Positions 4,159 through 49,372 of a stretch of DNA of 64,000 nucleotides are shown here, in pieces; positions within the stretch are counted from its first letter, which is position 1, and each line of letters opens with the position of its first letter. A program made the position numbers and the translations under genes. The stretch is from positions 2,604,001-2,668,000 of the forward strand of contig NZ_CP134949.1 in assembly GCF_032116555.1 (NCBI RefSeq), in the 5' to 3' direction. This DNA comes from Halorarum halobium (GTDB lineage Archaea > Halobacteriota > Halobacteria > Halobacteriales > Haloferacaceae). Under the pieces are notes generated by a model. That model made no database searches and was not told where the DNA came from. It saw only the letters and a program-made list of their open reading frames with translations.

Positions 4159-4364
4159 GGATGAGAGAGCGACGGCGAGCGGAGCGAGCCGAGTGAACGA
4201 ATCGGCTGGGGAGGCGTGTGGCTGCGGTGGCGGTGCGGTCGGGTGGGACTGGAAGGGGCCGTGGCTCTCGGGGACGGCGCGACCGTCAAGCACCACAGCG
4301 CGAGCGAAGCGAGCGCGAGGAGCGCAGCGGTCGCGCCGTCCCCGAGAGCCATGGGGGCTTCCGA
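4159..4364 (+). repeat. Structured intergenic repeat, copy A
   Basis: GGATGAG…GGCTGGGGAGG…GGGACTGGAAGGGGC, then a 26-bp stem (4260-4285/4328-4353) around AAGCACCACAG…GAGCGCAG, then GGGGCTTCCG. Confidence 0.85.
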
Positions 4365-4491
4365 AGCGTTCCGAACCGAATGAGTGGCTACCCTATTCTA
4401 CGCAGACGGGGACTCCCGCGGTCGTCACCACGGCAGTCGCGGTGCTGACTGAACCAACACCGACGACGAAATCAGACCCGAAGAACCCGGA

Positions 4492-5328
4492 TCATTCCCG
4501 CAGTTCCTTCACGCGCTGGATGTTCCAGGCGAACGACTTCCCGTCCTCGGTCGGCGTCTCCAGCGCCATCGGCACGTCGAGCAGGTCGGGGTGGTTGATG
4601 AACGCGCGCATCCCCTCCTCGCCGATGAGCCCCTCGCCGATGTGGGCGTGCTCGTCCTTGTTCGTCCCGCACTCGTGTTTCGAGTCGTTCAGGTGGACGT
4701 ATTCGAGGTGCTCGAGCCCGACCACGTCGTCCAGTTCGGCGATGGTCTCCTCGACGCTCGCCTCCGTGGAGAGGTCGTAGCCCGCCGCGAACGCGTGGGC
4801 CGTGTCGAGACAGATGTCGAGATCCAGGTCACAGCGGTCGATGATGCCCGCGAGGTGCTCGAACTCGCCGCCGAGCTTCGTGCCCGAGCCGGCGTCGGAC
4901 TCGATGAGCACCGTGACGCCGTCGGGAACGTCGAGTTCCTCGAGCGCCGAGGCCGCGTTGTCCAGACCGCCCTCGACGCCCGCGCCGGTGTGTGCGCCGA
5001 GGTGGACGTTGACGTACGGGACGTCCAACCTGTCGGCGGCGTCGACCTCCTGTTGCATGGAGTCGACCGACTTCTCGCGCAGGTCCTCCTTCGGCGTACA
5101 GAGGTTCACGAGGTACGACGAGTGGATGACCCACGGGCGGACGTCGTTCTCGTCGGCCGTCGCGCGGAAGCGCTCGGCCTCTACGTCCTCGATCTCGCCG
5201 TGGTTCCAGACCTGGGGCGAGTGGGTGAAGATCTGCCCGCAGTTGCCGCCGTCCTCGATCGCCTCGTCGACCGCGTTGGACACGCCGCCGGCGATGGACT
5301 CGTGTGCGCCGATCCGGAGTTCCGTCAT
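4492..5328 (-). CDS. nfo: Endonuclease IV (AP endonuclease family 2)
   Basis: [47 protein letters not shown] and LETP motifs. Confidence 0.95.
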
Positions 5329-5412
5329 GCCTGCGGGTGGTCGGCGGGCCCTCAAAGCCGCTTCGGAAGCGGTGGAGTAGACGCAAAATCGACCGCTCGA
5401 AGCTCGAATCAC

Positions 5413-6255
5413 CTACCGACCGCCGGGAACCCGCCGGACCCAGTCGTCGCTCCGGTACTTCTCGTCGCCGATCTCCTCTGCACGCTCCAGTTCCTCCGCC
5501 GTCCACTCGCCCGGCGACGCGTCGGCCCACTCCGCCAGCGTGTCCTCGAACGCAGTCACGGCTTCCCGGCGCGTCGCGTCGGTCAGTTCCGCGATGCCGG
5601 CGACCCGCTCGGCGAACCGGTCCTCGGTCACCCCCGGGTCGGCGAAGCACGCGAGATGGTCGCCGGGCTTCGACTCGTAGGTCACCGAGCCGTGCTGGAT
5701 GACCGCGTCCTCGCGGCGGTACTGGGCGTTGCCCGAGAGCTTCCGGCCGTCGCCGCCGGCCGAGAGCACGTCGTGTGCCGGGTGGAGCCCCCGGAGGTAG
5801 CACGCCGGGTGGTAGACGGCGTCGCGCTCCTCGCCCGCGTAGTCGGCGTCGACGCCGAGCCGTCGGAAGGCGTCCAGGACGGGTTCACAGAGCAGGCGGT
5901 AGGCGTCCATGAGCGACCCGGGGAGTTCGGCCGCGGGGGCGGTGATGGAGTAGGAGACGTCGCCCGAGCGGTCGTGGTAGATGCCGCCGCCGCCGGTCTG
6001 TCTGCGCGTCACATCCACGTCCGCGTCGGCACAGCGGTCCCAGTCGACCGTCTCCGGGTCCTGGTTGTAGCCGAGCGAGAGGCAGGACGGCTCCCAGCGG
6101 TACACGCGGACCGTCCGCGGTCCGCCGTCGGCCGCCGTCTCGGCCGCGACCTCGTCGAGCGCCATGTTCAGCGGGCCGGGCCGGGCCTCCTCGCGGACGA
6201 GCCGCCAGTCGCGGTCGGCGAGTGGGCCGGCGGAGTCCGCGTCGCCGTCGGTCAT
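5413..6255 (-). CDS. Lipoate-protein ligase A family protein
   Basis: NMALDE, RRQTGGGGIYHD, KLSGNAQ and IQHGS motifs. Confidence 0.9.
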   Translation of the reverse strand: MTDGDADSAGPLADRDWRLVREEARPGPLNMALDEVAAETAADGGPRTVRVYRWEPSCLSLGYNQDPETVDWDRCADADVDVTRRQTGGGGIYHDRSGDVSYSITAPAAELPGSLMDAYRLLCEPVLDAFRRLGVDADYAGEERDAVYHPACYLRGLHPAHDVLSAGGDGRKLSGNAQYRREDAVIQHGSVTYESKPGDHLACFADPGVTEDRFAERVAGIAELTDATRREAVTAFEDTLAEWADASPGEWTAEELERAEEIGDEKYRSDDWVRRVPGGR

Positions 6256-6321
6256 GCCCGGAGATGGGCCGCGCCGGGGCAAAGACCCCTCGGTGTCGCG
6301 GGAGGACCGACTGGGTGCGGT

Positions 6322-6453
6322 GGCGCGCGGCGGCCACCCCTCGTGGGCGGCCAATTCGCGCGAGGGACGAGCATCGCAGGCGAGGGAGCGGAGCGACCGA
6401 GGCTAGAAGCGCAGAGCGTGCCGAGGAGCGTAGCCAGCCGGGGGCTTTCGAGG
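6322..6453 (+). repeat. Structured intergenic repeat, copy B (internally deleted)
   Basis: 5' hairpin plus GCGAGGGACGAG joined directly to the 3' module. 6426-6454 is identical to 49345-49373 and 6380-6401 is identical to 49300-49321. Confidence 0.8.
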
Positions 6454-6636
6454 CGTGCGTCACGACAGCCGAGACAGGACCGAACGCGACACACAGTAGG
6501 CTTTCGAGGCAGTTTGACGGGAAACCGCGAAACCCTCCTCGACCACACGAGAACCCGACCCGACACCGAACGAAAACCGGCCACGAACACAGCACACCCG
6601 GACCTTGATACCGTCTACCACACACGAAGATACGAG

Positions 6637-8178
6637 ATGGCACGCCAGTCCTCCGACGCCGAATCCGGCGGAGAACCCGACCGAGAAGCACCCGAACGGT
6701 ACGAGGCCCTCCTCGACCGATACAGACGGATCGCGTACCTCGAGAGCGGCTCGGGCGTCCTCTACTGGGACCAGCAGGTCACCATGCCCGAGGGCGGTAC
6801 GCCCGCCCGCGGCAAGCAGCTCGCCGCGCTCTCGGCGACGACCCACGAGAAGCTGACGAGCGATGGGATGGCCGAGGCCATCGCCGACGCGGAGGACGCG
6901 GACCTCTCCGAGGCGGAGGCGGCGAACGTCCGCGAGATCCGGCGGCGGCACGACCGCAACCGCTCGGTCCCCGAGTCACTCGTCGAGGAACTCACCGAGC
7001 ACACGTCCAACAGCCAGCGGGTGTGGCAGGAGGCGAAGGCCGAGGACGACTTCGACCGGTTCGCGCCGGCCCTCGAAACGCTCCGGGACCTGCAGGTGCG
7101 ACGGGCCGAGGCCATCGACCCCGACCGGCCGCCCTACGAGGTGATGTACGAGGACGGCGAGCCGTACCTCCCGCTCGACCGGATGGCCGAAATCTTCGAG
7201 GAGCTCAAGGACGCGCTCGTCCCGCTCATCGAGGAGATCCAGGCGGAGGGCGACGACCTGCCCTCGCCGTTCGTCGAGGCCGGCCCGTACGCCGACGAGG
7301 AGCAGCGGGCGCTCTCGGACGCCGTCCTGGACCTGCTCGGCTACCCCGAGGAGCACGGCCGCCTCGACGTCTCGGCGCACCCGTTCACGGCCGGTAACCA
7401 GTACGACGCGCGCATCACGACCCGGTTCAAGCCCGACGACCCGATGGACGCGCTCACGGCGACCGTCCACGAGTTCGGGCACGCGAGCTACGAACTCGGC
7501 CTGCCGACGGAACGGTTCGGCGAACCGCTCGGCGCGTCGCTCTCCAGCGGCGTCCACGAGAGCCAGTCCAGATTCTGGGAGAATCACGTCGGCCGCACGA
7601 AGCCGTTCTGGGAGGGCTTTCTCCCGACCGCGAAGGAGCATCTCGACGGCATCGACGACGTGACGCCCGAGGAGGCGTACGCCGCGGTGAACCGCATCTA
7701 CCCGGAGAACCTGATCCGCGTGGAGGCGGACGAGCTTACCTACCACCTGCACATCATCCTCCGCTGTGAACTCGACCGCGCGTTCGTCGCGGGCGACCTC
7801 GCGGTCGAGGAGCTGCCAGACGCCTGGAACCGGAAGATGGAGGAGTACCTCGACGTGACGCCAGACACCGACGCCGTCGGCGTGCTACAGGACATCCACT
7901 GGTCGAGCCGGTTCGCGGCGTTCCAGGGCTACACCATCGGCTCCGTCCTCGCCGCGCAACTCGACCACGCGATGCGGCGGGACGTCGACGACGTGGACGC
8001 GAAGATCCGCGAGGGGGACCTGAAGCCGCTCCGGGACTGGATGACCGAACACGTCCACTCGCACGGCCGGCGCTACCCGACCGACGAACTGGTCGAGGAG
8101 GCCACCGGCGAGCCGCTGACCGCCGAGTACTTCGTGGACTACGTGGAGGAGAAGTTCGGGGCGCTGTACGGGCTCTGA
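6637..8178 (+). CDS. Carboxypeptidase, M32 family
   Basis: HPF, DARITT, HEFGH (HExxH), HESQS, IRVEADE and QDIHW motifs. ATG at 6637. Confidence 0.95.
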   Translation: MARQSSDAESGGEPDREAPERYEALLDRYRRIAYLESGSGVLYWDQQVTMPEGGTPARGKQLAALSATTHEKLTSDGMAEAIADAEDADLSEAEAANVREIRRRHDRNRSVPESLVEELTEHTSNSQRVWQEAKAEDDFDRFAPALETLRDLQVRRAEAIDPDRPPYEVMYEDGEPYLPLDRMAEIFEELKDALVPLIEEIQAEGDDLPSPFVEAGPYADEEQRALSDAVLDLLGYPEEHGRLDVSAHPFTAGNQYDARITTRFKPDDPMDALTATVHEFGHASYELGLPTERFGEPLGASLSSGVHESQSRFWENHVGRTKPFWEGFLPTAKEHLDGIDDVTPEEAYAAVNRIYPENLIRVEADELTYHLHIILRCELDRAFVAGDLAVEELPDAWNRKMEEYLDVTPDTDAVGVLQDIHWSSRFAAFQGYTIGSVLAAQLDHAMRRDVDDVDAKIREGDLKPLRDWMTEHVHSHGRRYPTDELVEEATGEPLTAEYFVDYVEEKFGALYGL

Positions 8179-8279
8179 ATCGCGTCGGCCCGGCCCCCGG
8201 GTGAAGCGGCGAGTCTCGGCCGGCTTCCACCCACGTCGTCCCCCGGATTTACGGTGGGTCGCGCCGGACGTCGAACCGT

Positions 8280-9764
8280 ATGGGCGGTCATCGGTTCGAC
8301 GTCGCCGTCGTCGGCGGCGGCGTCGCCGGGATGGCGACGGCGGCACGACTACAGTCCGCGGGACGCTCCACCGTCGTCCTGGAACGACACGATCGGGTCG
8401 GCGGGTGTGCCGGCTACTATCGGCGGGACGGGTTTTCCTTCGACGTGGGCGCGACGACGCTCGTGGACTTCAGTCCCGGCGGCGTCGGCGGCCAGCTGCT
8501 CTCGGAGATCGGATTCGAGCCGCCGGAGATCGACGTCCAGGACGCCTACGAACTTCGGTTGCCCGACCGGACGGTCACCCTCTATCACGACCAGGAGCAG
8601 TGGGAACGCGAGCGGCGGCGGGCGTTCGGCGACGACGAGTCCCACCGCCGGTTCTTCCGCTTTCTCGACCGGACGGCCGAGACGCTCTGGGGGCTCACCA
8701 GGCGGGACGTGAAACTGCCGATCCAGGGGGTGGGTGACCTCCTTCGCAACGCCCGGGCGGTCGGGCCGTCGAACGTCGGGCTGGTCAGGTATCTCCGGTG
8801 GACGATGAAGGACGCGCTCGTCAGATACGGCGTGTACGACGACCGCCCGCTTCGAACAGCGATGGCGATGCTCGTCGAGGACACCGTCCACGCCGGCCTC
8901 GAGGAAGCTCCCCTGCTCAACTCGATCCTCGGGGTCACGATCCGGAGCGCGGGCCTCGGGCGGGCGACCGGCGGGATGGACGGCTTCTGGACGGCGTTTA
9001 CGGACCACTACGCCGACATGGGCGGGACCCTGAACGTCGGGGAGGCGGTCACCGAGGTGACCGGCAGTCGCGGGTCGTTCCGCGTCGAAACCGACGACGG
9101 TCGGCACCGGGCGGACCAGGTGGTGAGCGCGGTTCCCACCGAGCTCACCCGGCGGATCGCTCCCTCGGTCGTGGGGGAGCGGCTGGACGAGTACGTCTCG
9201 ACGATGCGCGAGCAGGAAGGCGGCGCGATCGTCGTGTTCCTCGGCGTTCCCGAGGCGGCGGTCGCCGGTCGCGAGCACACGCACCACCAGATCCTGCCGG
9301 AGTACGACGAACCGCTGGGGAACGGCAACAACATGTTCGTCTCCGTGTCGGCGCCGGGGGATACGGTGAGCGCCCCGGAGGGGTACCGGGCGGTGATGCT
9401 CACGACCCACTGTGACGTCGAGCCGTGGCAAGGGCTCGACGAGGCGACCTACGAGCGACGGCGGGCGGCGATCGGGCGGCGACTGGTCCGCGGCGCGCGA
9501 ACCGTCTACCCCGACCTCGGGACCGACCCGGCGGTGTACGAGGTCGGCACGCCGGTCACCTACGAGGCGTTCACGAACCGGCCACGGGGCGCTGTCGGGG
9601 GGTATCGCCAGACGCTCGAGACGGCGAACCAGCGCGCCGTGCCACAGGACGTCGGCGTCGACGGGTTCTATCTTGCGGGGGACACGACCTGGCCGGGGCT
9701 CGGGACGGTCGCGTGCATCAAGGGGAGCGGGATCGCGGCCGACCACGTGCTCGGCCGGCGGTGA
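8280..9764 (+). CDS. Phytoene desaturase-family FAD oxidoreductase (CrtD/CrtH-like)
   Basis: VVGGGVAG Rossmann motif, GGCAGYYRRDGFSFDVGAT, GTPVTYEAFTNRPRGAVGG and LAGDTTWPGLG. Confidence 0.8.
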   Translation: MGGHRFDVAVVGGGVAGMATAARLQSAGRSTVVLERHDRVGGCAGYYRRDGFSFDVGATTLVDFSPGGVGGQLLSEIGFEPPEIDVQDAYELRLPDRTVTLYHDQEQWERERRRAFGDDESHRRFFRFLDRTAETLWGLTRRDVKLPIQGVGDLLRNARAVGPSNVGLVRYLRWTMKDALVRYGVYDDRPLRTAMAMLVEDTVHAGLEEAPLLNSILGVTIRSAGLGRATGGMDGFWTAFTDHYADMGGTLNVGEAVTEVTGSRGSFRVETDDGRHRADQVVSAVPTELTRRIAPSVVGERLDEYVSTMREQEGGAIVVFLGVPEAAVAGREHTHHQILPEYDEPLGNGNNMFVSVSAPGDTVSAPEGYRAVMLTTHCDVEPWQGLDEATYERRRAAIGRRLVRGARTVYPDLGTDPAVYEVGTPVTYEAFTNRPRGAVGGYRQTLETANQRAVPQDVGVDGFYLAGDTTWPGLGTVACIKGSGIAADHVLGRR

Positions 9765-10051
9765 CCAGGACGCGGCACCAAAGGGGTGGAAGACTCGACC
9801 AGCGACGCCCGTGGGCTGGGTGAAGACGGCCCCGGCACACCAGTTCGTCCGAGCGATCGAACGGCTGGATCGGTAACCGGCGGCTGGCAACTGGCCGTGT
9901 CGCCCGCGCCCGTCCCTCCCCGGAGTACCCGTCACTGCCGGCCCACCGAAAACCGCACGAGGGAGCAGATTAACTCCGCGCCGTGCTGCGGTTTTCGACC
10001 GTGTCATACCGCCCCAATACCTATATACTGCCATGTCATAGCGTACCACGT

Positions 10052-10240
10052 ATGGCGTCGGCACCGAGCCCCGACGACGACCTGTTCGATCAGTTCCTGA
10101 GTGCCCGCGGTCACGACTCCGAGCCGACACGATGGGAGGAGTCGTACAACAAGAAACAGTGTCCGGACTGTGGCGGACTCCACGAGGACGACGCGCGGAC
10201 GTGCTCGGTGTGCGGCTGGCGACCCGAGACGCGCCGGTAG
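10052..10240 (+). CDS. Small CPxCG zinc-finger protein (HVO_0416-like)
   Basis: 62 aa with CPDCG…CSVCG. TATA-like CTATATA at 10021-10027 lies about 25-30 nt upstream, consistent with a leaderless transcript. Confidence 0.8.
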   Translation: MASAPSPDDDLFDQFLSARGHDSEPTRWEESYNKKQCPDCGGLHEDDARTCSVCGWRPETRR

Positions 10241-10340
10241 CGGAGCCGCCCCCCGCACGGGCGAATCGCCCGTTTTCCAGCCGATATCCCGGCCAGCGGA
10301 AGCCACGTCGCTTATGGGGGGCCGGGGCCAGTAAGCGGAC

Positions 10341-12197
10341 ATGAGCGACCCCACGGTGACCCGACTGTTCGGCGGTCCGGGCAGCGGGAAGACGACGGCG
10401 CTGCTCGACCGCGTCGAGACCCTCATCGAGGACGAGGGCGCGGAGATCCGGGACATCCTCGTGGTCTCCTACACTCGGGCTGCCGCCGCGGAGATCCGCG
10501 AGCGACTCGCGGAACGACTCGACACGACGCCCCGACACCTCCAGGGCAACGTGAGCACGATGCACGCGAAGGCGTACGAACTGCTGAACCTCTCGCGGGG
10601 CGACGTCGTCTCCGACTCGGACAAGGAGGAGTTCTGCGAGGAGTACGGCGTCGAGTTCGAGGACGAGTACTCGGGCGGCGGCCGGCGGACCGCCCGCTCG
10701 ACGACGCTCGGCAACAAGGTCATCGCCACCTCCCAGTGGCTCCAGCGCACCCACCGCGACGTCGCCGACTGGTACGACGTGCCGTTCCAGTGGGACGTCG
10801 AGGAGGTCCGGCTCCCGCCCGAAATCGACCCGAACGCACAGGAGGGGAACAAGTACACCCCGACGTGGCCCGGCGACGACGACCGGCTGGACGTGCCGAA
10901 CACGATCCGGGCGTGGCGGACCTACAAGGGCGAACACGACCTCACCGGGTTCGCCGACATGCTCGAACGGGTGAAGCAGCGCTCGCTCCTGCCGAACGTC
11001 GACTACCTCGTCATCGACGAGTTCCAGGACATCACGACGCTCCAGTACGAGGTGTACGAGGAGTGGCGGCCACACATGGAGACGGTGCTCATCGCGGGCG
11101 ACGACGACCAGGTCGTCTACGCCTGGCAGGGCGCCGACCCCGACCTGCTGCTCGACACGCACGTCGACCGGGACGAGGTGTTGCCCAACTCCTACCGACT
11201 CCCCTCGGACATCCTGACGGTCGTCAACCGCGAGATCCGCCACATCGAGAAGCGCCAGGAGAAGGACCTCAAACCCCGCAAGGAGGGCGGAACCGTCGAG
11301 GCCATCGAGTCGCCCTCGATGCTCGATCTGGTGCGGAACGTCCGCCACACCGTCCAGCGCACCGACGAGACGATCATGGTGCTGTTCCGGGCGCGCTACC
11401 AGATGTTCCAGTTCATCGACGAGTTCATGGCCGAGGGCATCCCCTTCTCGTGTCTCACCGACCAGCGGATGTGGACCGATCGGCTCACCGACTACGTCCG
11501 CGGCGTCGAGGCGATCGAGAACGACGAGGCGCTCACGGTGCTGCAGGCTCGCCGGCTCGCCGACATCCTCCAGGACTCGGCGTTCGGCTCGAACGAGCGC
11601 GACGAACTGTACGACTTCCTCGACGACGTGGAGGAGACCACCGACGAGGACGACCTCGCGGAGATCCCGCTCTCGCCCGACGACGTCACCGACTTCGTCC
11701 CGTTCATGCCCGACGGCGCGAGCGCGGCCGACATGGCCCGGAAGGTGACCTCCTTTCAGCGCAAGTCCGTGAAGGCGTACTTCCGGGGCGACTACGGGAA
11801 GATGGATCCGAGCCGGGTCCGCCTCGGCACCATCCACTCCGCGAAGGGCCGCGAGGCCGACCACGTGTTCGTCAACACCGACCTGACCGAGAAGGTCGTC
11901 GAGCAGATGGCCGCCCAAGTCCGCCAGGAGGAGATCGAGATCGAGGGCCTCCCGGCCGGCGAGGAGTTCACGAAGACGACGAACCCGGTGCCGATCCTCA
12001 CCGACAACGAGCGCCGCGTGTTCTACGTCGGCATGTCCCGTGCCCGGGAACGGCTGGTCCTCATGGAGAACCTCGTGAACGGCGCGCCGACGCTCCCCAT
12101 CAGCGTCGTGCTCTCGAACGAACTCAAGGACGACCCGCCCGAGGAGCTCGTCGAGGAGGTCATCGCCGAACTCGACGCCCCCGAACCCGAAGCCTGA
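10341..12197 (+). CDS. uvrD: UvrD/Rep-family SF1 DNA helicase
   Basis: GGPGSGKT, SYTRAAA, IDEFQD, GDDDQVVYAWQGA, TIHSAKGRE and RVFYVGMSRARE motifs. Confidence 0.9.
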   Translation: MSDPTVTRLFGGPGSGKTTALLDRVETLIEDEGAEIRDILVVSYTRAAAAEIRERLAERLDTTPRHLQGNVSTMHAKAYELLNLSRGDVVSDSDKEEFCEEYGVEFEDEYSGGGRRTARSTTLGNKVIATSQWLQRTHRDVADWYDVPFQWDVEEVRLPPEIDPNAQEGNKYTPTWPGDDDRLDVPNTIRAWRTYKGEHDLTGFADMLERVKQRSLLPNVDYLVIDEFQDITTLQYEVYEEWRPHMETVLIAGDDDQVVYAWQGADPDLLLDTHVDRDEVLPNSYRLPSDILTVVNREIRHIEKRQEKDLKPRKEGGTVEAIESPSMLDLVRNVRHTVQRTDETIMVLFRARYQMFQFIDEFMAEGIPFSCLTDQRMWTDRLTDYVRGVEAIENDEALTVLQARRLADILQDSAFGSNERDELYDFLDDVEETTDEDDLAEIPLSPDDVTDFVPFMPDGASAADMARKVTSFQRKSVKAYFRGDYGKMDPSRVRLGTIHSAKGREADHVFVNTDLTEKVVEQMAAQVRQEEIEIEGLPAGEEFTKTTNPVPILTDNERRVFYVGMSRARERLVLMENLVNGAPTLPISVVLSNELKDDPPEELVEEVIAELDAPEPEA

Positions 12198-12200
12198 GCC

Positions 12201-13433: not shown

Positions 13434-13495
13434 GAACGGCCCGCCGTCGCGTCAGGGCCGGCTCGCGGGGACGGGAGGCTCCGTCCACGAGAAGC

Positions 13496-13816
13496 TCAGG
13501 CCTCGTCCGCGGCGTCGTCGTCGCTCGCCGCCGCACCGTTCCCGCTCTCGTCGCGGTTCGACCCGTCCTCGCCGTCGCCTCGCCCGTTCTCGCTTCCGAG
13601 GGCGGTGTCGAGGGCTTTCTCGGCCGCCTTGCCCGGAACGTCCCCCGGGGTGGTGAGCCGCTGGGGGAGATACACCATCAGCGCGGCGACGACGAGGAAC
13701 GCCGCACCCACGACGAGGCTGCCGCCGGCCGCCTGCTGGAGCCCGTAGGCGGCGACGGGGATGGCGAAGATCAGGGTCGCCGCGAGGCCGAGCTGGTCGA
13801 GGATGCCGAGTGCCAC
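13496..13816 (-). CDS. Conserved small haloarchaeal membrane protein
   Basis: LGILDQLGLAATLIFAIPVA…PQRLTTPGDVP, with two TM helices and an acidic tail. GTG start. Confidence 0.7.
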   Translation of the reverse strand: MALGILDQLGLAATLIFAIPVAAYGLQQAAGGSLVVGAAFLVVAALMVYLPQRLTTPGDVPGKAAEKALDTALGSENGRGDGEDGSNRDESGNGAAASDDDAADEA

Positions 13817-13900
13817 GGGACGGGGTAGGACCGAGGGCGACAAAACCGGTTCGCCTCGCATCGGCGGCCGGGCACGAGTGGACCATCGGCCACCCGGGAC

Positions 13901-15328: not shown

Positions 15329-15365
15329 GTTACTTCCCTGTCGTGTGGACCGGGGGAGTGCGGTC

Positions 15366-15676
15366 GGCGCGTGCCGGCGGGCCTCCGTGCCCGCCGGATG
15401 CGCGCGAGGGATGAGTGAACGGAACGACCGGAGGGAGTGGAGTGAACGAATCGGCTGGGGAGGCGTGTGGGCGTTGCTGTGCGGAGCGGTGGGGGGACTG
15501 AAAGGGGCCGCACCTGTGGGCGACGGCGTGGACCGTCAAGCACCGTGGTTCGAAAATCGGAGATTTTCGTCATCACGAAAGGCGCAAAGCGCCTTTCGAA
15601 CGACAGGAGGGAGGCCGCAGGCCGACCGACGAGAAGCGCAGCGGCCGCACCGAGCCGACAGGTGCGGGGGCTTTCG
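15366..15676 (+). repeat. Structured intergenic repeat, copy C (full length, with an extra double-hairpin insert)
   Basis: 5' hairpin, GCGAGGGATGAG, GAGTGAACGAATCGGCTGGGGAGGCGTGTGG (identical to copy A), GGGACTGAAAGGGGC, stem CCGCACCTGT/ACAGGTGCGG and GGGGCTTTCG. Confidence 0.85.
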
Positions 15677-15826
15677 CGGTCTGCCGTACGGTTTCCACAG
15701 GACCCGTCCGGACGCGGGCCGAGTCTTCTACGGGGGCTTTCGAGGTCCTCGCAACCGAGGGATCCACTACCCTTCCGGATAGGGCTGACTGCGCTGACTG
15801 CTCACCGTCAAAATCGTGGAAGAAGA

Positions 15827-15987
15827 CGCCAGGACGGGGATTTGAACCACGCCGAGACGGTCCTGCTCGCCTCGCTTCGCTCGCCTGCGCGGGCTGCGAC
15901 TCGTCTACTTCAAATCCCTGTCGTTCGGATATTCGTGGGCCGACGGCTCGCTCACTTCGTTCGCTCGCGGTGTCGGCCCGAGAAGTA
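15827..15987 (-). repeat. tRNA-linked cassette: duplicated tRNA-Ser 3' end plus an inverted T-arm copy
   Basis: 15827-15848 matches tRNA 15988-16009 at 21/22 positions. 15909-15922 (TTCAAATCCCTGTC) is an exact inverted copy of part of the T-arm/acceptor. Confidence 0.8.
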
Positions 15988-30589: not shown

Positions 30590-30674
30590 GGTTCGGTTCG
30601 GACCGTTCGGTCACGATCCGTACTGCCGCCGACAGCACCGCCTCGGACGCCCCCGCGGCTCAGGCTCCACCCTG

Positions 30675-30793
30675 GCGGACTCACGAAGGGCGAACGCGCT
30701 CCGCGAACCCCGACCCCGTAAGCACCGCAGGCGAGCGGAGCGAGCCGAGGCGCGCAGCGCGAGTCGCGAGAGCGGAGCGCGTGAGGGCTTCGT
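30675..30793 (+). repeat. Structured intergenic repeat, copy D (diverged 3' module)
   Basis: GGACTC-ACGAAG…CTTCGT closing stem, ACGCGCTCCGC/GCGGAGCGCGT arms and a central AAGCACCGCAG…GCGCAG. Confidence 0.7.
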
Positions 30794-37486: not shown

Positions 37487-37555
37487 CGCCGTTCGACCGT
37501 CGAGGGACGCCCGGCAGCCATTGAGGGACGACCGGCAACCAGCGAGGAACGACGG

Positions 37556-40293: not shown

Positions 40294-40521
40294 TGTGTTC
40301 CCGTCTACGGGCTCGAACCCATATATTCTCCCGGAGACACCGACGAAAGCTGGTGTCGTTCGTGTCACCCGCCCGTTCCTGAGTCGCCGGTCCGTCACCC
40401 TCCCCCCGTGCGAGAGCAATTTGATATCGCGTTATTTGATTTATTTGGGCGTTTGCCGTCGGCTACGGGACCGCCCGCCGGTTCCCCGAACCTTATGCCG
40501 CGACGGGCGATATCGACCGCT

Positions 40522-41703: not shown

Positions 41704-41770
41704 CTCGGCGCCCCCGTCGCCTCCGATTCCCGGTGCCTTCTTGCCATCGGCCGACGGACACCCCACACCC

Positions 41771-42406
41771 GTGGCAACGTCCTTCGCCCCGTTCGGAACC
41801 CTCGTCGACGCCGACCTCCCGGACGACCCGGCTACCGTGGTTGGCCGCGAACTCCTCGACCGCGGCGTCGCCCTCCCGGACGACTGGGACGCCGCCTACC
41901 GGGAGCGCCACGTCGACGCGCCCGACGACGCCGAGGTCCCACTTCCCGCACACGTGAGCGCCGCGCTCGCGTCCCGCGACGTCGACGCGCCGGGAAACGC
42001 CGCTCGGCGGGCCGTCGTCGCCGCGTTCGACCCGGCGGTCGAGACCCGCGCGGGCGCGGTCGAGGCCGTCGAGGCGGCCGCCGAACGCGGTCCCGTCGGG
42101 TTGCTGGCCGACTGCGCGGTTCCCGAACTCGTCGGTCGAACGCTCGTCCGTTCGGACCTCTCCCGGACCGACTTCGACGCCGTCGTCACCAGCGTCGCCT
42201 GTGGGTGGCGGAAACCCGACCGACGGGCGTTCGAGGCGCTCGCCCATCGACTCGACGCCCCGGCGGGCGCGCTGACCCACGTCGGTGCCGACTCCGAGAC
42301 GGACGGCGGTATCGTCGACGCCGGCGGCGAGTTCCGGGACGTGAACGAACGGTCGCTACCGGCGCTCGCGGCGACGTGGCGGGACGACGCCCGTGGTCGA
42401 CCCTGA
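41771..42406 (+). CDS. HAD-superfamily-like protein lacking catalytic aspartates
   Basis: Motif I is SFAPFGTL, plus FDAVVTS…GWRKPD and HVGADSETDGG. Confidence 0.75.
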   Translation: MATSFAPFGTLVDADLPDDPATVVGRELLDRGVALPDDWDAAYRERHVDAPDDAEVPLPAHVSAALASRDVDAPGNAARRAVVAAFDPAVETRAGAVEAVEAAAERGPVGLLADCAVPELVGRTLVRSDLSRTDFDAVVTSVACGWRKPDRRAFEALAHRLDAPAGALTHVGADSETDGGIVDAGGEFRDVNERSLPALAATWRDDARGRP

Positions 42407-42913
42407 TCGGACGACCGAACCCTCCGGATTGCCAGTTCCGGACGAAACCCCGGGACGCGAGGACGAATCGGAGCGGTAGCTACTGACGGAATTCGTCGCG
42501 CCCTCGATCGATGGCCGAGCGCCGTGCGTCCCGATAGGGACACCTCCGTGGCACGTCCCGAGGCGAATCCCGAACTGTGCCGGCTGGGGAAGACACCGGA
42601 CGGTCCGTCGGGTCCGATCGCTACGGTCGACGACTGTGTTGTCGGGTTTTCTCGGACGTCCGTGAGATGATCAAACCACCAGATTGGAGCATGAATCGGA
42701 GCTATCGGCCCGCCGTCTCACTCGACCTGTACCGATCGCAACCGACGCCTGATCGGTGGCCGTCGGGGCGGCCCGGTACGGGGGTTCCGATCGCAAGACT
42801 GCGGTCCGAATCGGAGAACTCGCTCCCGGGAACTGACCCGAACCGGCAGCGGCACTCACGTCGATTGCCCACCGGACGCAACGGCAGCGCGTGCTCGCCG
42901 TCCGACTCCCGGT

Positions 42914-44836
42914 TCAGGCTCCGGTGAGGAAAAAGAGGATGACCGAGACGGCGAGCGAGGAGACGATGACCGCGAGCGCGAGCGCGCCGCCCATCGAGAC
43001 GGCGGCGTTCGCGTGGCTGGCGAGCGTCTCGGTCCGGTCGTTGCCGAACACCGTGACCTCGGCGCGCTCGGTCGCCATGCCGACTTCCGCGGGTTCGAGG
43101 TCCTCCGTGGCCGCCCCGACGAGGTCCCGGACGGCGGCCTCGAGTTCGGCCTCGTCGATGGCCGCGCCGACCTGGTTGTCCGCCTCGACGGTGTTGACGA
43201 TGTGGGTGTCGGTCGTCATCACCTCCGCCTCGTCGACGAAGTCGGCGACGAGTCCGTCGACCAGTGCGTCGCGCAGGCCCGGTTCCATGTTGTTGCCGTC
43301 GACGAGCACGTACGCCGTCGTGTGGCCGTCGCCGTCGTCGCCGACCTCCGTCACCATCACGCGGATGCCGAGCGGGCCGATGCCGTCCTCGGGCACCCAG
43401 TCGGTCTCGTCCCAGGCGGTGCCGACGCGGAGCTTCCCGCGGGGGGCGTTCGCGAGGTGGTCGGCCGCGTCACGCGCGGCGCCCATCAGGTCGAACGAGC
43501 GGCGCGACCCCGGCGTGACGTGGCCGAGGTCCGGCCCGTCGAGCCCGTTGTTCGAGTTGTGCGCGTCGACGAGCAGCACGTCGCGGAGGCCGCCCGCCCG
43601 GGCCTCCGAGGCGGCCGAGAGGCCGACGGCGTACTCCACGTCGTCGGCAAAGCCCGGCGCGAACGAGGAGACGAGCAGCGCGTCGCCGCCGAACGACTGC
43701 CCGAGCACGGTCGCCTCGCCGGCGTCGACGCGGACGCCACGGGTCGCCGACGCCGAGTAGTCCAGTCGGTCGTACGCCCGCGCGGCGGCGTCGACGACGG
43801 ACTCGACCTCGCGTTCGGTGACGAGGTTGAAGTCGTGCCCGGCGGTCGCGTGGGGCGGGAACGCCAGCCCGTCCGCGTGGTCCGCGACGCGGACCGGGAG
43901 GTTCCCGCCGCCGATCTCGCCCATCGGGCCCGGATGGATCATCGGGAGCACCCAGCGGGCCTTCTCCTCGCCCGCGGGGGTCCGGACCGCCATGACCGTC
44001 ACCGGGACGACCGCTTCCTCGCCGAGTTGCTCGAAGAAGTTCTCCAGTTCGCGGCTCCCCTCGGCGATGTGACCGATGAAGCCGCCGACGAAATCGAGCA
44101 CCGAGATGCCGAGCGAGTTGCGCCACGGCCGGTCGACGATGTAGAGGAACCCCCAGACTGCGAGCCCGTACAGCGCGCACGTGAGTCCAAGCAGGAGGAA
44201 GTGGTCGGGGGTGATCGACGACAGCTCCGCGGGTGCCTGCTCGGGCCGGGCGAGGTACGGCTGGAGGAGCGCGTCGAACAGCGGGCCGCCGATTTCGAGG
44301 TACAGCAGCGTCCCGCTGTAGATGAACAGTAGCACCGCGGCAGTCCCGGTCTGGATGCTCGCGGGGACGGCCGCGACGAGGAGCCGCGACCCGGAGACGG
44401 CCGCGATGACCAGCAGCCGGAGCGCGAACACGGACGCCAGCGAGACGATCAGCACGTCGAAGACGAACCGCTGGCCGAGCGGCGTGAGGTAGGCGATCGT
44501 CGCGGCGGCGGTGAGCATCGCGACGATGACGAGCTCACAGACCAGCGCGAGCAGCGACGACCGGTTGTGCGTGAACCGGCCGCCGACGCGGTGGTCGACC
44601 CACGTCGTGGCGAAGCTGGCGACGACGGTCGGCACGCCGATGAAGAAGATGCCCTCCCAGGCGTCGCGCCCGACGAAGAGCACCCCGCGCCAGGTGCCGA
44701 GGGGGTCGGGTCGCTCGAACGCTCCGATGCCGGCGACCGCGGCGAGGAAGATGGCGAACGCGACGCTCGTCGACCACGACGGCGCGCGGAAGATGAACCG
44801 CGAGAGGCTCGCCAGGTTGCTCTGCGAGGTCGTCAT
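42914..44836 (-). CDS. DUF2070 family membrane protein
   Basis: N-terminal multi-TM region; IHPGP, HATAGHDFN, DAHN, DGNN and TTDTH motifs. Confidence 0.9.
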   Translation of the reverse strand: MTTSQSNLASLSRFIFRAPSWSTSVAFAIFLAAVAGIGAFERPDPLGTWRGVLFVGRDAWEGIFFIGVPTVVASFATTWVDHRVGGRFTHNRSSLLALVCELVIVAMLTAAATIAYLTPLGQRFVFDVLIVSLASVFALRLLVIAAVSGSRLLVAAVPASIQTGTAAVLLFIYSGTLLYLEIGGPLFDALLQPYLARPEQAPAELSSITPDHFLLLGLTCALYGLAVWGFLYIVDRPWRNSLGISVLDFVGGFIGHIAEGSRELENFFEQLGEEAVVPVTVMAVRTPAGEEKARWVLPMIHPGPMGEIGGGNLPVRVADHADGLAFPPHATAGHDFNLVTEREVESVVDAAARAYDRLDYSASATRGVRVDAGEATVLGQSFGGDALLVSSFAPGFADDVEYAVGLSAASEARAGGLRDVLLVDAHNSNNGLDGPDLGHVTPGSRRSFDLMGAARDAADHLANAPRGKLRVGTAWDETDWVPEDGIGPLGIRVMVTEVGDDGDGHTTAYVLVDGNNMEPGLRDALVDGLVADFVDEAEVMTTDTHIVNTVEADNQVGAAIDEAELEAAVRDLVGAATEDLEPAEVGMATERAEVTVFGNDRTETLASHANAAVSMGGALALAVIVSSLAVSVILFFLTGA

Positions 44837-45031
44837 GCGTTTCCTGAGGTGGACCGAGGACGGCGGTCGCTAAAAAGGGCTGTTCTTCTAGTATGTGTTC
44901 GATCGGTTGGCAGTCGGATGAGAGGGGTGCTTCGGGGCGGTCGCAGGGGAAAGCACGGGGACCTCATGCCCCTGCGGCTATCAACTCCGTTCGTGTCGGG
45001 ACGATAGGTCTGGAAACCGCACAGCATACCG

Positions 45032-45319
45032 CGAAAGCCCCCGCGGCTCTCGACTCGGTGCGGCCGCTGCGCTCGTTCGGCTGCGGTGCTTGTCGGTCCG
45101 CGCCTGCGTCGATAGCCGCGGCCCCTTCCAGTCCCACCCACCGTACCGCACGGCACGGCGCCTTCCCCTCCCCAGCCTCCTGCGCTCCTCGGCCTTCGCG
45201 GGACTCGCTTTGCTCGACCCGCGTGCTCTCGTTCGCTCCTGCGTCGCTCACGAGAGCTTCGGCCTGCGGTGCTCGTCCCTCGCACGAGCGGTCGCGCCGG
45301 CGCGCGACCGCCACGTGCC
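45032..45319 (-). repeat. Structured intergenic repeat, copy E (full length, minus strand)
   Basis: Minus strand: GCGAGGGACGAGCACCGCAG…GGCTGGGGAGG…GGGACTGGAAGGGGC-CGCGGCT…AAGCACCGCAG…AGCCGCG-GGGGCTTTCG. Confidence 0.85.
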
Positions 45320-45384
45320 ACGTGGCTGATTCCCGTCGCGACGCACCTGGAATCGGACCGCCGTGCTCGCCCGAGTCACTGGCA

Positions 45385-45504
45385 GGGTGGGAATGGAAGG
45401 GGCCGCGGCTCTCGGGGAACCCCGGACCCGTAAGCACCGCAGCGACCGCAGGGAGCGAGGAGCGCAGCGCGGTCCGCGGGAGCCGAGAGCCGCGGGGGCT
45501 TCCG
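45385..45504 (+). repeat. Structured intergenic repeat, copy F (3' module only)
   Basis: GGGAATGGAAGGGG-CCGCGGCTCTCGG…AAGCACCGCAG…GAGCGCAG…CCGAGAGCCGCGG-GGGCTTCCG. Confidence 0.8.
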
Positions 45505-45599
45505 CGGTCGTCACCACGAGCCACCAAGCGACTGTCCCGTTACAACCACAACTTCCTCAAAACCCTCACCGAACCAAATTCTATATCGCGAAAAACGAT

Positions 45600-46154
45600 T
45601 TACCGGCAGATCTCGACGAAGTTCTCGAAGACCTCCTGTCCCCGTTCCGTATGCGAGACTTCGGGGTGCCACTGGACGCCGTAGAGGTCACGCGCCACGT
45701 CGCTCATCGCTTCGACGCCACAGACGTCGCTCTCGGCGGTCACGGTGAACCCGTCGGGTACCTGCTTCACTTCGTCGGCGTGGCTCGCCCAGGTTCGAGT
45801 CTCGGGAGCGAGCGATCCGATCAGGGGGTCCTCGTCGTCGGAGATGGTCACGTCGACGTCGGCGTAGCCGCCGTACTCGCCGCCGCCGACGGTGCCGCCG
45901 AGCAGCTCGGCGATGGCCTGGTGGCCGAGACAGACGCCGAGCACCGGCAGGTCCATCTCAAGGTACTCCGCGGTGCGGCCGATGCGGTCCATGCTCGGTC
46001 CGCCCGAGAGAACGAGGCCGTCCGCGTCGATGTCGGCGGGAGGGGTGTCGTTGTCCACGACGTCGGTGTCGACGCCGGCGTCCCGGAGGGCACGACCTTC
46101 CAGGTGGGTGAACTGGCCGTGGTTGTCGATGACCACGATGCGCGGTGCGCTCAT
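45600..46154 (-). CDS. guaAa: GMP synthase subunit A (glutamine amidotransferase)
   Basis: IDNHGQFTH, LSGGP, GVCLGHQ, SHADEV and GVQWHPEV motifs. Confidence 0.95.
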   Translation of the reverse strand: MSAPRIVVIDNHGQFTHLEGRALRDAGVDTDVVDNDTPPADIDADGLVLSGGPSMDRIGRTAEYLEMDLPVLGVCLGHQAIAELLGGTVGGGEYGGYADVDVTISDDEDPLIGSLAPETRTWASHADEVKQVPDGFTVTAESDVCGVEAMSDVARDLYGVQWHPEVSHTERGQEVFENFVEICR

Positions 46155-46230
46155 GTCGGCTGTAGCGGCGACGCGGTGAAAAGCCGTCCGCTTCGCGCGA
46201 CCGGCGATCGACAGTTCGGCCGGGTCGAAA

Positions 46231-46803
46231 TCAGCCCCCGTCCTGTCGTTCCCGGGCGGTCGAGAAGCCGAACTCGCCCATCTCGGTGCCGCGCCGCGAC
46301 TCCCGTTCGGCGATCGCCTCCGGGTCCGGGTTCGCGTCGTCGTCCACCCGGGCGAACCCGTTGTGGACCTTGGCGTGACACCAGCGACAGAGGCCCACCG
46401 TGATCTCGTGGGTCGGCTCGCCCTCCGTGTCGTCCGTCACGCCGATGTCGTCCTCCCCGCCCGCACCCCCGGGAGATCCGGCCCCGGCGTAGGAGAGGTG
46501 GTGCTCCTCGACGAGCGGTCTGGCCGCGTCGTGGGCCATCCGGACCTCCTCCAGCCCGCACCGCGCACAGGCCTTCCCGTCGGTCGTCGACCGGTAGTGT
46601 GAGCAGTCGGTCCAGTCCGCCTCCTCGTCGCCGGCGACACAGTCGTAGCCCGCGGCCCGGCGCTCGGCCGCGAACGCCGGGTCGTTCCCGGCGTGATCGA
46701 GCGCGTACCGACACCGACCGTCGCCCGTGAGGTGATCACAGCGACCGGCGTGCTCGTACGGGTCGTCCACGCCGACCGGCGTCCCGTCCGGCGTCTCCTC
46801 CAT
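46231..46803 (-). CDS. Cys/His-rich protein with an HNH-like zinc-binding motif
   Basis: CDHL…CRYA…C…C, then CARCG…EEHHLSY…LCRWCHAKVH. Confidence 0.75.
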   Translation of the reverse strand: MEETPDGTPVGVDDPYEHAGRCDHLTGDGRCRYALDHAGNDPAFAAERRAAGYDCVAGDEEADWTDCSHYRSTTDGKACARCGLEEVRMAHDAARPLVEEHHLSYAGAGSPGGAGGEDDIGVTDDTEGEPTHEITVGLCRWCHAKVHNGFARVDDDANPDPEAIAERESRRGTEMGEFGFSTARERQDGG

Positions 46804-46967
46804 ACGTGGGCTGGCGCGTCCTGCCTGTTAAGCCCTTCTCGTCGGTGCTGAGCCGGGACCGGGTCCGTGGCACGTCGCGGATCGACGGAGATCGTGTAGT
46901 CCATTCCGCTATAGAGAATACCCGCCAGGGCGGAACGGTGAAGTCGGAGGCGGCGGAGGGAATCGGC

Positions 46968-47351
46968 GTGCAAGTCGTCCACCATCCCGCCGACGCCACC
47001 GGCGTCGCGAGTACGGCCGACGACGCGACGGCAGGGCGCGTCCTGGCCGCCGACGCGGAGACGGCGGACTCGTTTCTCGCGCAGGCGCGGGGGCTGATGT
47101 TCCGCCGGTCGGTTCCCGAGGGCTACGCGCTCGTCTTCCCGTTCGAGGAGGTCGGGTCGCGCGATCTCCACATGGTGTTCGTGCCGTTCGCCATCGACGC
47201 GCTCTGGCTGGTGGACGGCGAGGTGCGGGAGCGGAAACGCCTCCGCCCCTGGCTCGGCATCGGCGTCGGCGAGGCCGACACCGTCATCGAGCTGCCGGCG
47301 GGCGCGGCCGACGGCGTCGAGGCGGGCGACCGGATCGAACTGCGGGAGTGA
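46968..47351 (+). CDS. DUF192 family protein
   Basis: ADSFLAQARGLMFR, LHMVFVPFAID and VIELPAG motifs. Confidence 0.88.
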   Translation: MQVVHHPADATGVASTADDATAGRVLAADAETADSFLAQARGLMFRRSVPEGYALVFPFEEVGSRDLHMVFVPFAIDALWLVDGEVRERKRLRPWLGIGVGEADTVIELPAGAADGVEAGDRIELRE

Positions 47352-47495
47352 GATCGAGTGTGGGGAGGGATCGACCCCGAGAGGGAAGCAGTCGTCGAGC
47401 GCGAGCCGCAATTCTTGCGCGCCCGACAGTCGGACCTGTCCGGTCGGTCCGGTTTATGCACCCATGGGCTCGAGGGTGGAGCGAGCATATGACTC

Positions 47496-49067
47496 GTGAC
47501 CGCTTTATTCGGGTGCGAACCCACTAACTCCTCACTCCCCCGATCGATCGACGTAACGTTCCTCGACACGACGCTGCGCGACGGCGAGCAGATGCCGGGC
47601 GTCTCCCTGTCGGCCGACGAGAAGGCAGCCATCGCGCGCGACCTCGACGCCGCCGGCGTCGACATCGTGGAGGCCGGCTCCGCGTGTACCAGCGCGAGCG
47701 AGCGAGAGACGATCCGCCGCGTGGCGGGGCTGGGGCTCGATGCGACCGTCACCAGCTTCGCGCGCGGCGTGCGCGCGGACGTGGACCACGCGCTGGACTG
47801 TGACGTCGACGGCGTGAACCTCGTCGTCCCGGCCAGCGACCGCCACGTCGAGACGAAGGTGGGCTCCTCGCACGAGGACGTGCTGGCCCGCACCGTCGAA
47901 CTCGTCGAGTACGCCCGCGATCACGGGCTCTGGGTCGAGGTGCTCGGCGAGGACGGCTCCCGGGCCGACCTCGACTTCCTCGACCGGCTCTCGGCGGTGG
48001 CGATGGAGGCCGGGGCGGACCGGGTCTGCTACTGTGACACCGTCGGCGCGGCCTCGCCCGAGCGGACGGCGGAGGTCGTCTCGACGCTCGCGGCCCACGG
48101 CCCCGTCTCGGTCCACACCCACGACGACCTGGGACTGGCAAACGCGAACGTGCTGGCCGGGTTGAACGCCGGTGCCGACCTCGTGCACGCCACGGTCAAC
48201 GGCGTCGGCGAGCGCGCCGGCAACGTCGCGCTGGAGGAAGTCGCCGTCGCGCTGGAGCGCTGCTACGGCGTCGAGACGCTGGATCTCGCGGAGCTGTACC
48301 GGCTCGCCCGCCGGGTCGCGGACGCCACCGGCGTCCCGCTCGGAGCGAACAAGGCCGTCGTCGGCGACAACGCGTTCGCCCACGAGAGCGGCATCCACAC
48401 CGACGGGACGCTGAAGGACGGCCGGATGTACGAGCCGTACCCGCCCGAGACGGTCGGGCGCGAGCGCCGCCTCGTCCTCGGAAAACACGCCGGACGCGCC
48501 GGCGTGAAGGCGGCCCTCTCCGAGCAGGGGTTCGACCCCGACGGGGAGGAACTGGACGACATCGTCGCGCGCGTGAAGGACCTCGGCGATCGGGGCAAGC
48601 GCGTCACCGACGCCGATCTCGCCGCCGTCGCCGGGGACGTCCTCGGCCGCGAGCGCGACCGGCGCGTCGAACTGCTGTCGCTCTCGGCGACGAGCGGCGC
48701 GGACGTGCCGACCGCGAGCGTGCGGCTCCTGGTCGAAGACGAGGAGCGGACGGCAGCAGGCACGGGCAGCGGCCCGGTCGACGCCGCGGTGGAGGCGGTC
48801 CGCTCGGCGCTGGGGCCCGACGCGAACGCCTCGCTGGAGTCGTACCACGTCGACGCCGTGACGGGCGGCACCGACGCGGTCGTCGCCGTCGAGGTGACGA
48901 TGCGCCGGGGCGACCGGACGGCCACGGTGTCCGCCGCGGACGCGGACATCACCCGCGCGAGCGTCGAGGCCGCCGTGGACGCGCTCGACCGCCTGCTGGC
49001 CGCGGAGGCGGACGCGGCCGAGGAGTCGCCGAACGTCGACCCCGACGAGGAAGTCCGGGCTGAGTGA
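47496..49067 (+). CDS. (R)-citramalate synthase / 2-isopropylmalate synthase family
   Basis: DTTLRDGEQ, CDTVG, HTHDDLG, NGVGERAGN, HESGIH, GKHAG and regulatory-domain GSGPVDA. GTG start. Confidence 0.9.
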   Translation: MTALFGCEPTNSSLPRSIDVTFLDTTLRDGEQMPGVSLSADEKAAIARDLDAAGVDIVEAGSACTSASERETIRRVAGLGLDATVTSFARGVRADVDHALDCDVDGVNLVVPASDRHVETKVGSSHEDVLARTVELVEYARDHGLWVEVLGEDGSRADLDFLDRLSAVAMEAGADRVCYCDTVGAASPERTAEVVSTLAAHGPVSVHTHDDLGLANANVLAGLNAGADLVHATVNGVGERAGNVALEEVAVALERCYGVETLDLAELYRLARRVADATGVPLGANKAVVGDNAFAHESGIHTDGTLKDGRMYEPYPPETVGRERRLVLGKHAGRAGVKAALSEQGFDPDGEELDDIVARVKDLGDRGKRVTDADLAAVAGDVLGRERDRRVELLSLSATSGADVPTASVRLLVEDEERTAAGTGSGPVDAAVEAVRSALGPDANASLESYHVDAVTGGTDAVVAVEVTMRRGDRTATVSAADADITRASVEAAVDALDRLLAAEADAAEESPNVDPDEEVRAE

Positions 49068-49107
49068 TCGGGAACCGGCCGGGAAACGTGCCGGGAGCCA
49101 GCCGGCC

Positions 49108-49372
49108 GGCGCGCGTGACGCGAACCCCCTCGTGGGGTGAGTCGACGCGCGCGAGGGACGAGCACCGCAGGGTGCGCGACCGCAGGAAGCGCACGCGAGG
49201 AGCACAGGAGGCTGGGGAGGACGAGGTGCGGTGCCGTACGGTGGGTGGGACTGAAAGGGGCCGGCTGGCTACGCGACGGCGGACGAGACAAGCACTGCAG
49301 CGAGGGAGCGGAGCGACCGAGCGAAGCGCGCAGCGAGGCCCCCCGAGCGTAGCCAGCCGGGGGCTTTCGAGG
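49108..49372 (+). repeat. Structured intergenic repeat, copy G (full length)
   Basis: 5' hairpin, GCGAGGGACGAGCACCGCAG, GGCTGGGGAGG, GGGACTGAAAGGGG, perfect 14-bp stem 49261-49274/49347-49360 and GGGCTTTCGAGG. Confidence 0.85.

Follow-up and report, generated by a model that had tools for sequence, protein, structure and literature searches.

The stretch analysed here, hereafter the window, comprises 64,000 nt of contig NZ_CP134949.1 of Halorarum halobium (positions 2,604,001 to 2,668,000, forward strand) and holds seven copies, A to G, of a dispersed, structured intergenic repeat lying among housekeeping genes. The copies obey a pairing rule, bear the signature of a fold in single-stranded DNA (ssDNA), have been remodelled, and contain a core that is homologous to the distal end of the leader preceding ssb, a gene for an RPA-like protein, on conjugative plasmids and integrative and conjugative elements (ICEs). 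A first-pass annotation of the window had reported the seven copies with their common order of motifs, and all seven were found again where it had placed them. They run further than the ends it had assigned, with degenerate tail units of 56–57 nt and with copy D starting near position 30591, and copy B, which it had counted as a member of the family, is chimeric, a left module being joined to the 3' half of a core. In window coordinates, the features are as follows.

4159..4364 (+): copy A, a truncated left module and core hairpin R
4365..4420, end approximate (+): degenerate tail unit of copy A
4492..6255 (-): inverted two-gene housekeeping block (AP endonuclease family 2, lipoate ligase)
6320..6453 (+): copy B, a type-1 left module joined to the 3' half of the core; inversion junction
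6454..6512, end approximate (+): tail unit of copy B
15359..15678 (+): copy C, a type-2 left module and core
15546..15603 (+): sub-module S1, a nested double hairpin within copy C
15679..15745 (+): tail unit of copy C, with a second end motif at its end
30591..30793 (+): copy D, of plasmid-leader type (plasmid-only model; synteny break against both congeners)
44965..45029, end approximate (-): degenerate tail unit of copy E
45030..45327 (-): copy E, a type-1 left module and core; left arm of a head-to-head pair
45381..45506 (+): copy F, a core alone; right arm of the pair with copy E
49108..49372 (+): copy G, full type-1; filled with different stems in congener G152, absent in congener G151

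Inventory and anatomy of the repeat

The H. halobium genome (G000; 3.68 Mb in three contigs, C1–C3) was searched with profiles for which 33 left and 45 right modules served as input. This yielded 172 units, 168 on C1, three on C3 and one on C2, with no match in the reversed genome. None of the 172 lies more than half inside a gene call made by a simple gene caller, in agreement with the earlier description of the copies as intergenic and non-coding. The units merge into 137 sites (103 single, 30 head-to-head, one tail-to-tail and three other), which falls short of the hundreds of copies that had been extrapolated from the window and makes the window about three times denser than the genome average. 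Copies E and F form one such head-to-head pair, and complete pairs therefore have inverted outer ends; the claim that the repeat lacks terminal inverted repeats does not hold for these pairs.

A full unit runs from a 5' hairpin through motif A, a variable hairpin, motif B and a G-rich linker to core R. The core, of about 120 nt, combines a closing helix of five pairs with a 3x3 G/G bubble and a stem some 14 pairs long, to which internal loops, motif D and a terminal hairpin are added. It is followed on its 3' side by zero to a few degenerate tail units, with a 56–57-nt period in 13 of the 21 measured. Left modules are of two types, and all seven pairs that hold two left modules combine type 1 with type 2; the usual form of family f4 is two opposed cores about 31 nt apart. 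Element ends are fuzzy and carry no TATA-like signal in G000. Identity reaches 90% or more in only six of 990 core pairs, and doublets show no significant gain in conservation over singles (median bit score 55 versus 49, p 0.21). The sites do not cluster (28 versus 25 expected within 5 kb), no preference for a type of intergenic region was seen across all units, orientation is independent of the flanking genes, and the chromosomal copies show no preference for gene starts.

Sub-module S1 is a double hairpin of 58–75 nt, inserted either way round and with no duplication; of its 17 copies, 16 lie inside elements, and it is found in other genera too. By its description, S1 resembles SMR-A (HqIRS42/43/55) of Haloquadratum walsbyi, which the available part of PMC3119063 presents as short, with inverted ends, and as entering the palindromes of other elements without target duplication.

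A scan of other Halobacteria, suggested with the first-pass annotation, detected the exact core motif in 75 of the 151 genomes of the class, with no control matches; the repeat is thus present in about half of the Halobacteria sampled, with 100–170 copies in many. Allowing one mismatch gives 0 to 174 matches per genome (controls 0–6). Copy number varies sharply inside genera (1 to 174 in genus g2; 2–5 versus 84 in g31), and the variants of the repeat are lineage-specific across genomes. In genus g2 (L081, L084–L107), 12 and 15 of 22 copies have a TTATAA-like word close to the one and the other end, against 2 of 792 bins in the background, and perfect tandem tails occur in some. A scan of GTDB sequences returned at least 122 loci, haloarchaeal in all 80 titles among the matches listed. 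The 77 single-motif matches in IMG/VR were chance-like among those listed, two composite patterns gave no viral match and INPHARED gave none, so that no convincing viral copy was obtained, and four DNA metagenomes with small shares showed mixed-species noise only. Rfam contained no match to the element at gathering score and none to the ssb leader. No published description of the repeat or the leader was found in the literature listings and abstract openings searched; the available portions of PMC3733652, PMC3372372 and PMC13107129 contain no description of the repeat. The repeat, REP-like and archaeal, thus seems not to have been described before.

Covariation and the fold of the G/A-rich strand

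The long stems had been reported to differ between copies yet to remain complementary, and they do. That of copy A, given earlier as 26 bp, comprises 27 consecutive pairs with one G.T and is the only fully paired 27-bp stem among 57 cores. These 57 filled cores of G000 use 39 different 13-nt arms, and 48 of them form at least 11 of 12 pairs. The closing helix covaries as first described, in 43 of 43 full-length cores (34 GAAAG/CTTTC, nine GGAAG/CTTCC), and genus g2 has a third covarying closing helix (12 + 2 cases). Covariation was scored in 45 cores, namely 40 of the 80 titled GTDB loci, picked for standard length, and five window copies. Pairing and covariation both exceed the shuffled controls: paired cells amount to 92.1% versus 70.6% (0 of 500 shuffles), and the covariation score is 0.506 versus 0.143, with slid controls at most 0.095. 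Here the structure came from the very alignment that was scored, and the search pattern had fixed the closing helix.

The view that the G/A-rich strand is tuned to fold as ssDNA is supported by its loops. Triloops of the form cGNAg, with all four bases at N, occur 165 times in 29.3 kb on this strand versus nine times on the opposite strand, while 313 kb of other intergenic DNA hold 51 and 61 and 146 kb of shuffled sequence hold 34; DNA-type triloops are thus enriched about 30-fold in the elements. Tandem GA shows the same asymmetry (224 versus 2), and RNA-type loops are not enriched (GNRA 7, UUCG 0). The triloop bias recurs in 132 cores from other genomes (69 versus 2) and in 19 copies of genus g2 (38 versus 6). 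In the portion of PMC13037366 that was available, GNA mini-hairpins are described as far less stable as RNA than as DNA and as present in ssiA, the G4 origin and the N4 promoters. The concentration of cGNAg triloops on one strand, with GNRA loops not enriched, argues for ssDNA rather than RNA. Of the two structured molecules originally proposed, ssDNA selected for its fold is accordingly supported by the strand-specific triloops and the 92.1% pairing, and RNA is disfavoured.

A structured non-coding RNA or untranslated-region element would fit the strong covariation and the tolerance of G.T on one strand, and 12 of the 22 copies of genus g2 have a TTATAA-like word no more than 30 nt from the 5' end. 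However, RNA-type GNRA and UUCG loops are not enriched while DNA-type triloops are, the copies are oriented independently of the flanking genes, and Rfam gives no match, all of which make an RNA very improbable.

Turnover of copies and the search for an enzyme

Two congeners, G151 and G152, were compared with G000. The block between copies A and B is inverted with respect to both, with junctions in or at elements, and copy D lies at a synteny break with respect to both. Over 1.44 Mb, long intergenic regions were rearranged relative to G152 in 16 of 32 cases with an element and 23 of 92 without (p 0.014, or 0.06 counting insertions; 89 missing-partner cases set aside), a comparison that may be confounded by the greater length of element-bearing regions. 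Because element-bearing intergenic regions are rearranged more between congeners, the repeat may shape gene order. The 302 adjacencies conserved between G000 and G152 include seven with an element in both genomes, seven with one only in G000 and four with one only in G152, so that of 18 orthologous sites with an element, 11 are filled in one of the two genomes only. Some "empty" sites retain the outer scaffold without the inner hairpin and look like deletions, and no clean insertion junction or target duplication was seen in the filled/empty alignments viewed, whose flanks are about 86% identical and give low resolution. The original suggestion of a non-autonomous mobile element is therefore favoured by the range in copy number (0 to 174) and by the 11 sites filled on one side only, but not by the deletion-like empty sites, the lack of a clean junction or duplication, or the failure to find a cognate enzyme. 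A MITE was rejected, as the fuzzy ends offer no sharp terminal inverted repeats shared with an insertion sequence and no target duplication was seen in those alignments.

Inside the copies, 12 of 74 cores are empty through loss of the inner hairpin at short direct repeats, two of 26 G152 cores have their inner part inverted, and an orthologous core pair is only 48% identical with unrelated stems, the median for paralogues being 72%. These marks of remodelling are those of arm-to-arm switching and exchange between copies. It might be supposed that such turnover is neutral throughout, the chromosomal copies having no function and no dedicated enzyme, and palindrome repair, slippage and gene conversion producing the covariation. 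The one perfected stem (copy A), the hairpin losses, the inner inversions and the unrelated stems of orthologous copies (identity 0.48) are in line with this, but the internal loops, the G/G bubble, the strand-specific GNA loops and the tandem GA are kept across genera. These kept features count against neutrality because template switching alone would erase them, and only one of 57 stems has been perfected; we consider purely neutral turnover quite improbable.

No enzyme family among those tested tracks the repeat. The Y1_Tnp domain (PF01797) was not found in seven high-copy genomes (G000, which is 99.9% complete, G009, G012, G014, G019, G035 and G032; control positive in 6 of 14), is present in the motif-free G018 and G086, and bears no relation to copy number. 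In other searches, reverse transcriptase (PF00078) was not found in G000, IS110 was found in none of five genomes, TnpB gave one match 4.3 kb from the nearest site, tyrosine recombinases gave nine matches of which none adjoins a site, a MOBP-like relaxase was not found with the query used, and a Y2_Tnp search gave no match, its controls being equally silent. DUF1424 Rep proteins occur in 29 of 151 genomes with no relation to copy number, and the one adjacent case (G045) belongs to a pleolipovirus-like provirus at the neighbouring tRNA. Of the nuclease, transposase or reverse transcriptase gene that the annotation suggested looking for beside the copies, no cognate was found; the recurrent neighbour is ssb. 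The provirus of G045 (L424, G045:C1:1643300-1654000) sits in a tRNA directly after an element copy, and an integrase with a DUF1424 Rep remnant in G000 (L425, G000:C1:2304600-2312000) is probably an integrated virus or plasmid.

Several known families were rejected as identities for the repeat. PATEs and SMRs of Haloquadratum walsbyi are, in the available part of PMC3119063, likewise haloarchaeal, transposase-free and palindromic with heterogeneous ends, but PATEs share ends with IS605 elements, whereas our element models matched none of 30 Y1-transposase loci and copy number is unrelated to Y1 presence, which argues against any IS200-IS605 derivative. A retron or other retroelement is not indicated in G000, where PF00078 was not found. 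In integron attC sites, the integron integrase makes its crossovers in the basal helix; here no tyrosine recombinase adjoins a site, and the inversion in the window breaks elsewhere in the element.

The likeness to bacterial REP, REPIN and BIME sequences, described with their RAYT enzymes in PMC3116915 (available in part), is closer: both are intergenic and of high copy number, with inverted doublets, imperfect hairpins, lineage-specific sequence and an ssDNA logic. As in REP sequences, inverted doublets are over-represented among the 137 sites, 30 being head-to-head versus one tail-to-tail. The haloarchaeal units differ in measuring 120–300 nt versus 20–40, in stems that vary freely between copies, in their homology to a plasmid leader and in their archaeal host. 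A head-to-head pair might accordingly move as ssDNA, cut out and put back by a nuclease present in single copy and missed by the Pfam models, the plasmid copy being one conserved insertion or binding site, and the roughly 100–170 intergenic copies, the lineage-specific variants, the doublets, the imperfect hairpins and the ssDNA signature would all suit such a system. Y1_Tnp, however, was not found in the seven high-copy genomes and is present in two motif-free ones, DUF1424 Rep is unrelated to copy number, ssb is the sole recurrent neighbour, doublets are no better conserved, ends are fuzzy and near-identical core pairs are rare. Identity with RAYT-type REPs was rejected because no cognate Y1 was found in those seven genomes and because doublets are no better conserved than singles, and a nuclease-driven system of this general kind seems to us unlikely.

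The ssb leader and the possible source of the repeat

The only recurrent mobile-element gene among 551 clustered neighbouring open reading frames encodes an OB-fold RPA-like protein (ssb), probably, from its size and location, of the Rfa5/Rfa6 and HVO_A0019 class (available part of PMC5924565). This gene occurs in 84 of 151 genomes and in 208 PLSDB records. In 30 ssb loci, the closest homologues of one query, a core model trained on G000 copies had matches upstream of ssb in 22, each of them on the template strand of that gene, and downstream in none; the match starts 454–559 nt upstream of ssb in 18 loci, and the core lies 450–650 nt from the start codon. It forms the sharp distal end of a conserved, non-coding ssb leader of 550–780 nt, conservation stopping abruptly past the closing helix although the sequence beyond can still be aligned between close elements. 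A model built from 15 plasmid leaders, with the plasmid copy of G000 left out, gave 37 matches in G000, 34 of them at known sites (two being the leaders themselves), and none in the reversed genome; its best dispersed match is copy D (E 1.6e-12). A model of the proximal leader gave just four matches in G000, so only the distal part of the leader has spread. The presence of the core upstream of ssb on conjugative plasmids and ICEs is new here. Both ssb homologues of G000 carry it, as do named plasmids of Halobacterium salinarum, Haloarcula marismortui and Halorubrum salinarum, and it is present in genomes with no chromosomal motif match (G029, G005). The leader on the Halobacterium salinarum plasmid contains inserted hairpins resembling those of chromosomal copies.

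The repeat has a traceable relative with a plausible role, one carried also by a plasmid of a model species, which makes the ssDNA signals of haloarchaeal conjugative elements, and the origin of palindromic repeats that lack a transposase, open to test. The plasmid ssb leaders (L332, G000:C2:77557-78209, and L333–L361) are conserved and structured and deserve study in themselves.

Gene order on these plasmids and ICEs is VirB4-VirD4-primase ... leader-RPA-TFB, a TFB gene often following ssb. One element has a separate MOBP-like relaxase (motifs read by eye) and the core nevertheless stays with ssb. The core might be an origin of transfer (oriT) or a relaxase-binding hairpin, chromosomal copies being oriT mimics moved by resident relaxases, and the sharp end of conservation past the closing helix, the succession of a long hairpin and direct repeats, the conjugation genes nearby and a nuclease-like motif at the VirD4 C-terminus (by eye; no match in Atlas) would be in keeping with this. 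The core, however, keeps to ssb in elements that differ in their relaxase arrangement, and does so whichever way round it lies relative to the transfer genes; beyond the boundary, close elements can still be aligned; and high-copy genomes often lack an ssb element, so that an oriT is improbable. The VirD4-like protein concerned (L330:7754-11407, 1217 aa) ends in a PD..EVE..K-like motif, read by eye, and is possibly fused to a nuclease or relaxase. A MobC-like gene, a short HUH relaxase-like gene and VirD4, apparently unannotated, also lie together at L322:2166-5601 in an integrated element of genus g28.

Frpo1 and Frpo2 of F offer another comparison, as long structured non-coding regions upstream of ssb on a conjugative element (PMC9849209, in its available part). 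The plasmid leader could likewise be a single-stranded promoter for early expression of ssb and TFB, with chromosomal copies as relics or portable regulatory units; the position of the core on the template strand upstream of ssb in 22 of 30 loci is that of Frpo2 and ssb in the same source, and an element-encoded TFB follows ssb. The haloarchaeal leader, by contrast, has no identified promoter boxes, no promoter scan of its fold having been made, serves an archaeal transcription machinery and places the core 450–650 nt from the start codon, while the chromosomal copies show neither preference for gene starts nor, in G000, a TATA-like signal at their ends. A promoter of this type is thus rather improbable.

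The explanation that we tentatively favour, while giving it somewhat less than even chances, is that the repeat derives from a plasmid single-strand priming signal, recognized by a primase, that turned into a dispersed REP-like repeat. The template strand of ssb would become single-stranded during conjugative transfer or replication and then fold; the GNA mini-hairpins and the long stem of the core, which contains the G/G bubble, would hinder coating by SSB and offer a site to the AEP-like primase of the element, on the model of ssiA with RepB'. Pieces of the leader would have entered chromosomes, copy D being an intermediate, and some lineages would have multiplied them, both as singles and as head-to-head pairs of asymmetric make-up. 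For this amplification a cut-and-paste transposase is a less probable agent than recombination, together with template switching from arm to arm, in cells that are polyploid. Such events would also account for stems whose sequence changes while pairing is kept, for inner hairpins lost or inverted, for inserts nested in copies, for tails in tandem and for the breakpoints of rearrangements.

Like ssi signals, the core is an ssDNA hairpin on a primase-encoding element, the primase being a look-alike in the case of the G000 protein. The ssiA and ssiB sites of RSF1010 with RepB' primase, and the G4 origin, resemble the present elements in their GNA mini-hairpins, in their paired opposed sites and in having an AEP-like primase and an SSB on the same element (PMC13037366 and PMC4234260, in their available parts), but those signals are not dispersed chromosomal repeats. 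The Sulfolobus plasmid pRN1 has, beside its archaeal primase gene, a stem-loop of about 100 nt that is conserved in structure and not in sequence (PMC4234260, same portion), though in another order and plasmid type, in single copy and with no link to ssb.

Several observations weigh against a priming signal of plasmid origin. The 30 ssb loci are kin to each other, one being from G000. The AEP-like primase assignment is based on an NCBI label, a Pfam match below cut-off and an Atlas look-alike; the G000 plasmid protein is a look-alike only, and a PDB sequence search with the primase domain returned nothing meaningful. GNA triloops are scarce in the plasmid leader (6 versus 2 in 11.6 kb), whose strands fold about equally, and the left-module model matched none of the 30 plasmid leaders. 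Copy number does not follow the presence of the ssb element (G045, G014, G011 and G056 gave no match, G001 and G018 have it), and the copies show no replichore-scale strand bias (p 0.11). Descent could also have run from chromosome to plasmid, or both ways.

A bolder version, which we hold to be distinctly unlikely, turns the head-to-head type-1/type-2 pair into a mini-origin both selfish and protein-free: two opposed primase signals, taken over from conjugative plasmids, would start local synthesis in polyploid chromosomes, over-replicate themselves, spread by recombination and host hairpin-targeting mini-elements. If true, this would be a mobile element spreading by priming instead of cutting, and haloarchaea might owe to it both genome shuffling and origin-independent initiation. 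The explanations weighed here are not fully exclusive of each other.

Three further features of the window were noted. An Rfam eL15-Euryarchaeota leader lies at 2524-2584 (-), and a gene with internal tandem repeats of about 69 nt at 57399-59105 (-). Behind tRNA-Ser(GGA), at 15825-15987 (-), lies a tail module in which two GNA hairpins are combined with the T-loop copied in inverted orientation and with a further copy of the 3' end of the tRNA; about seven of the 18 intergenic GNA/GA hairpins of the genome outside elements trail tRNAs, and the inner motif of this tail module reappears as an insert in five elements.

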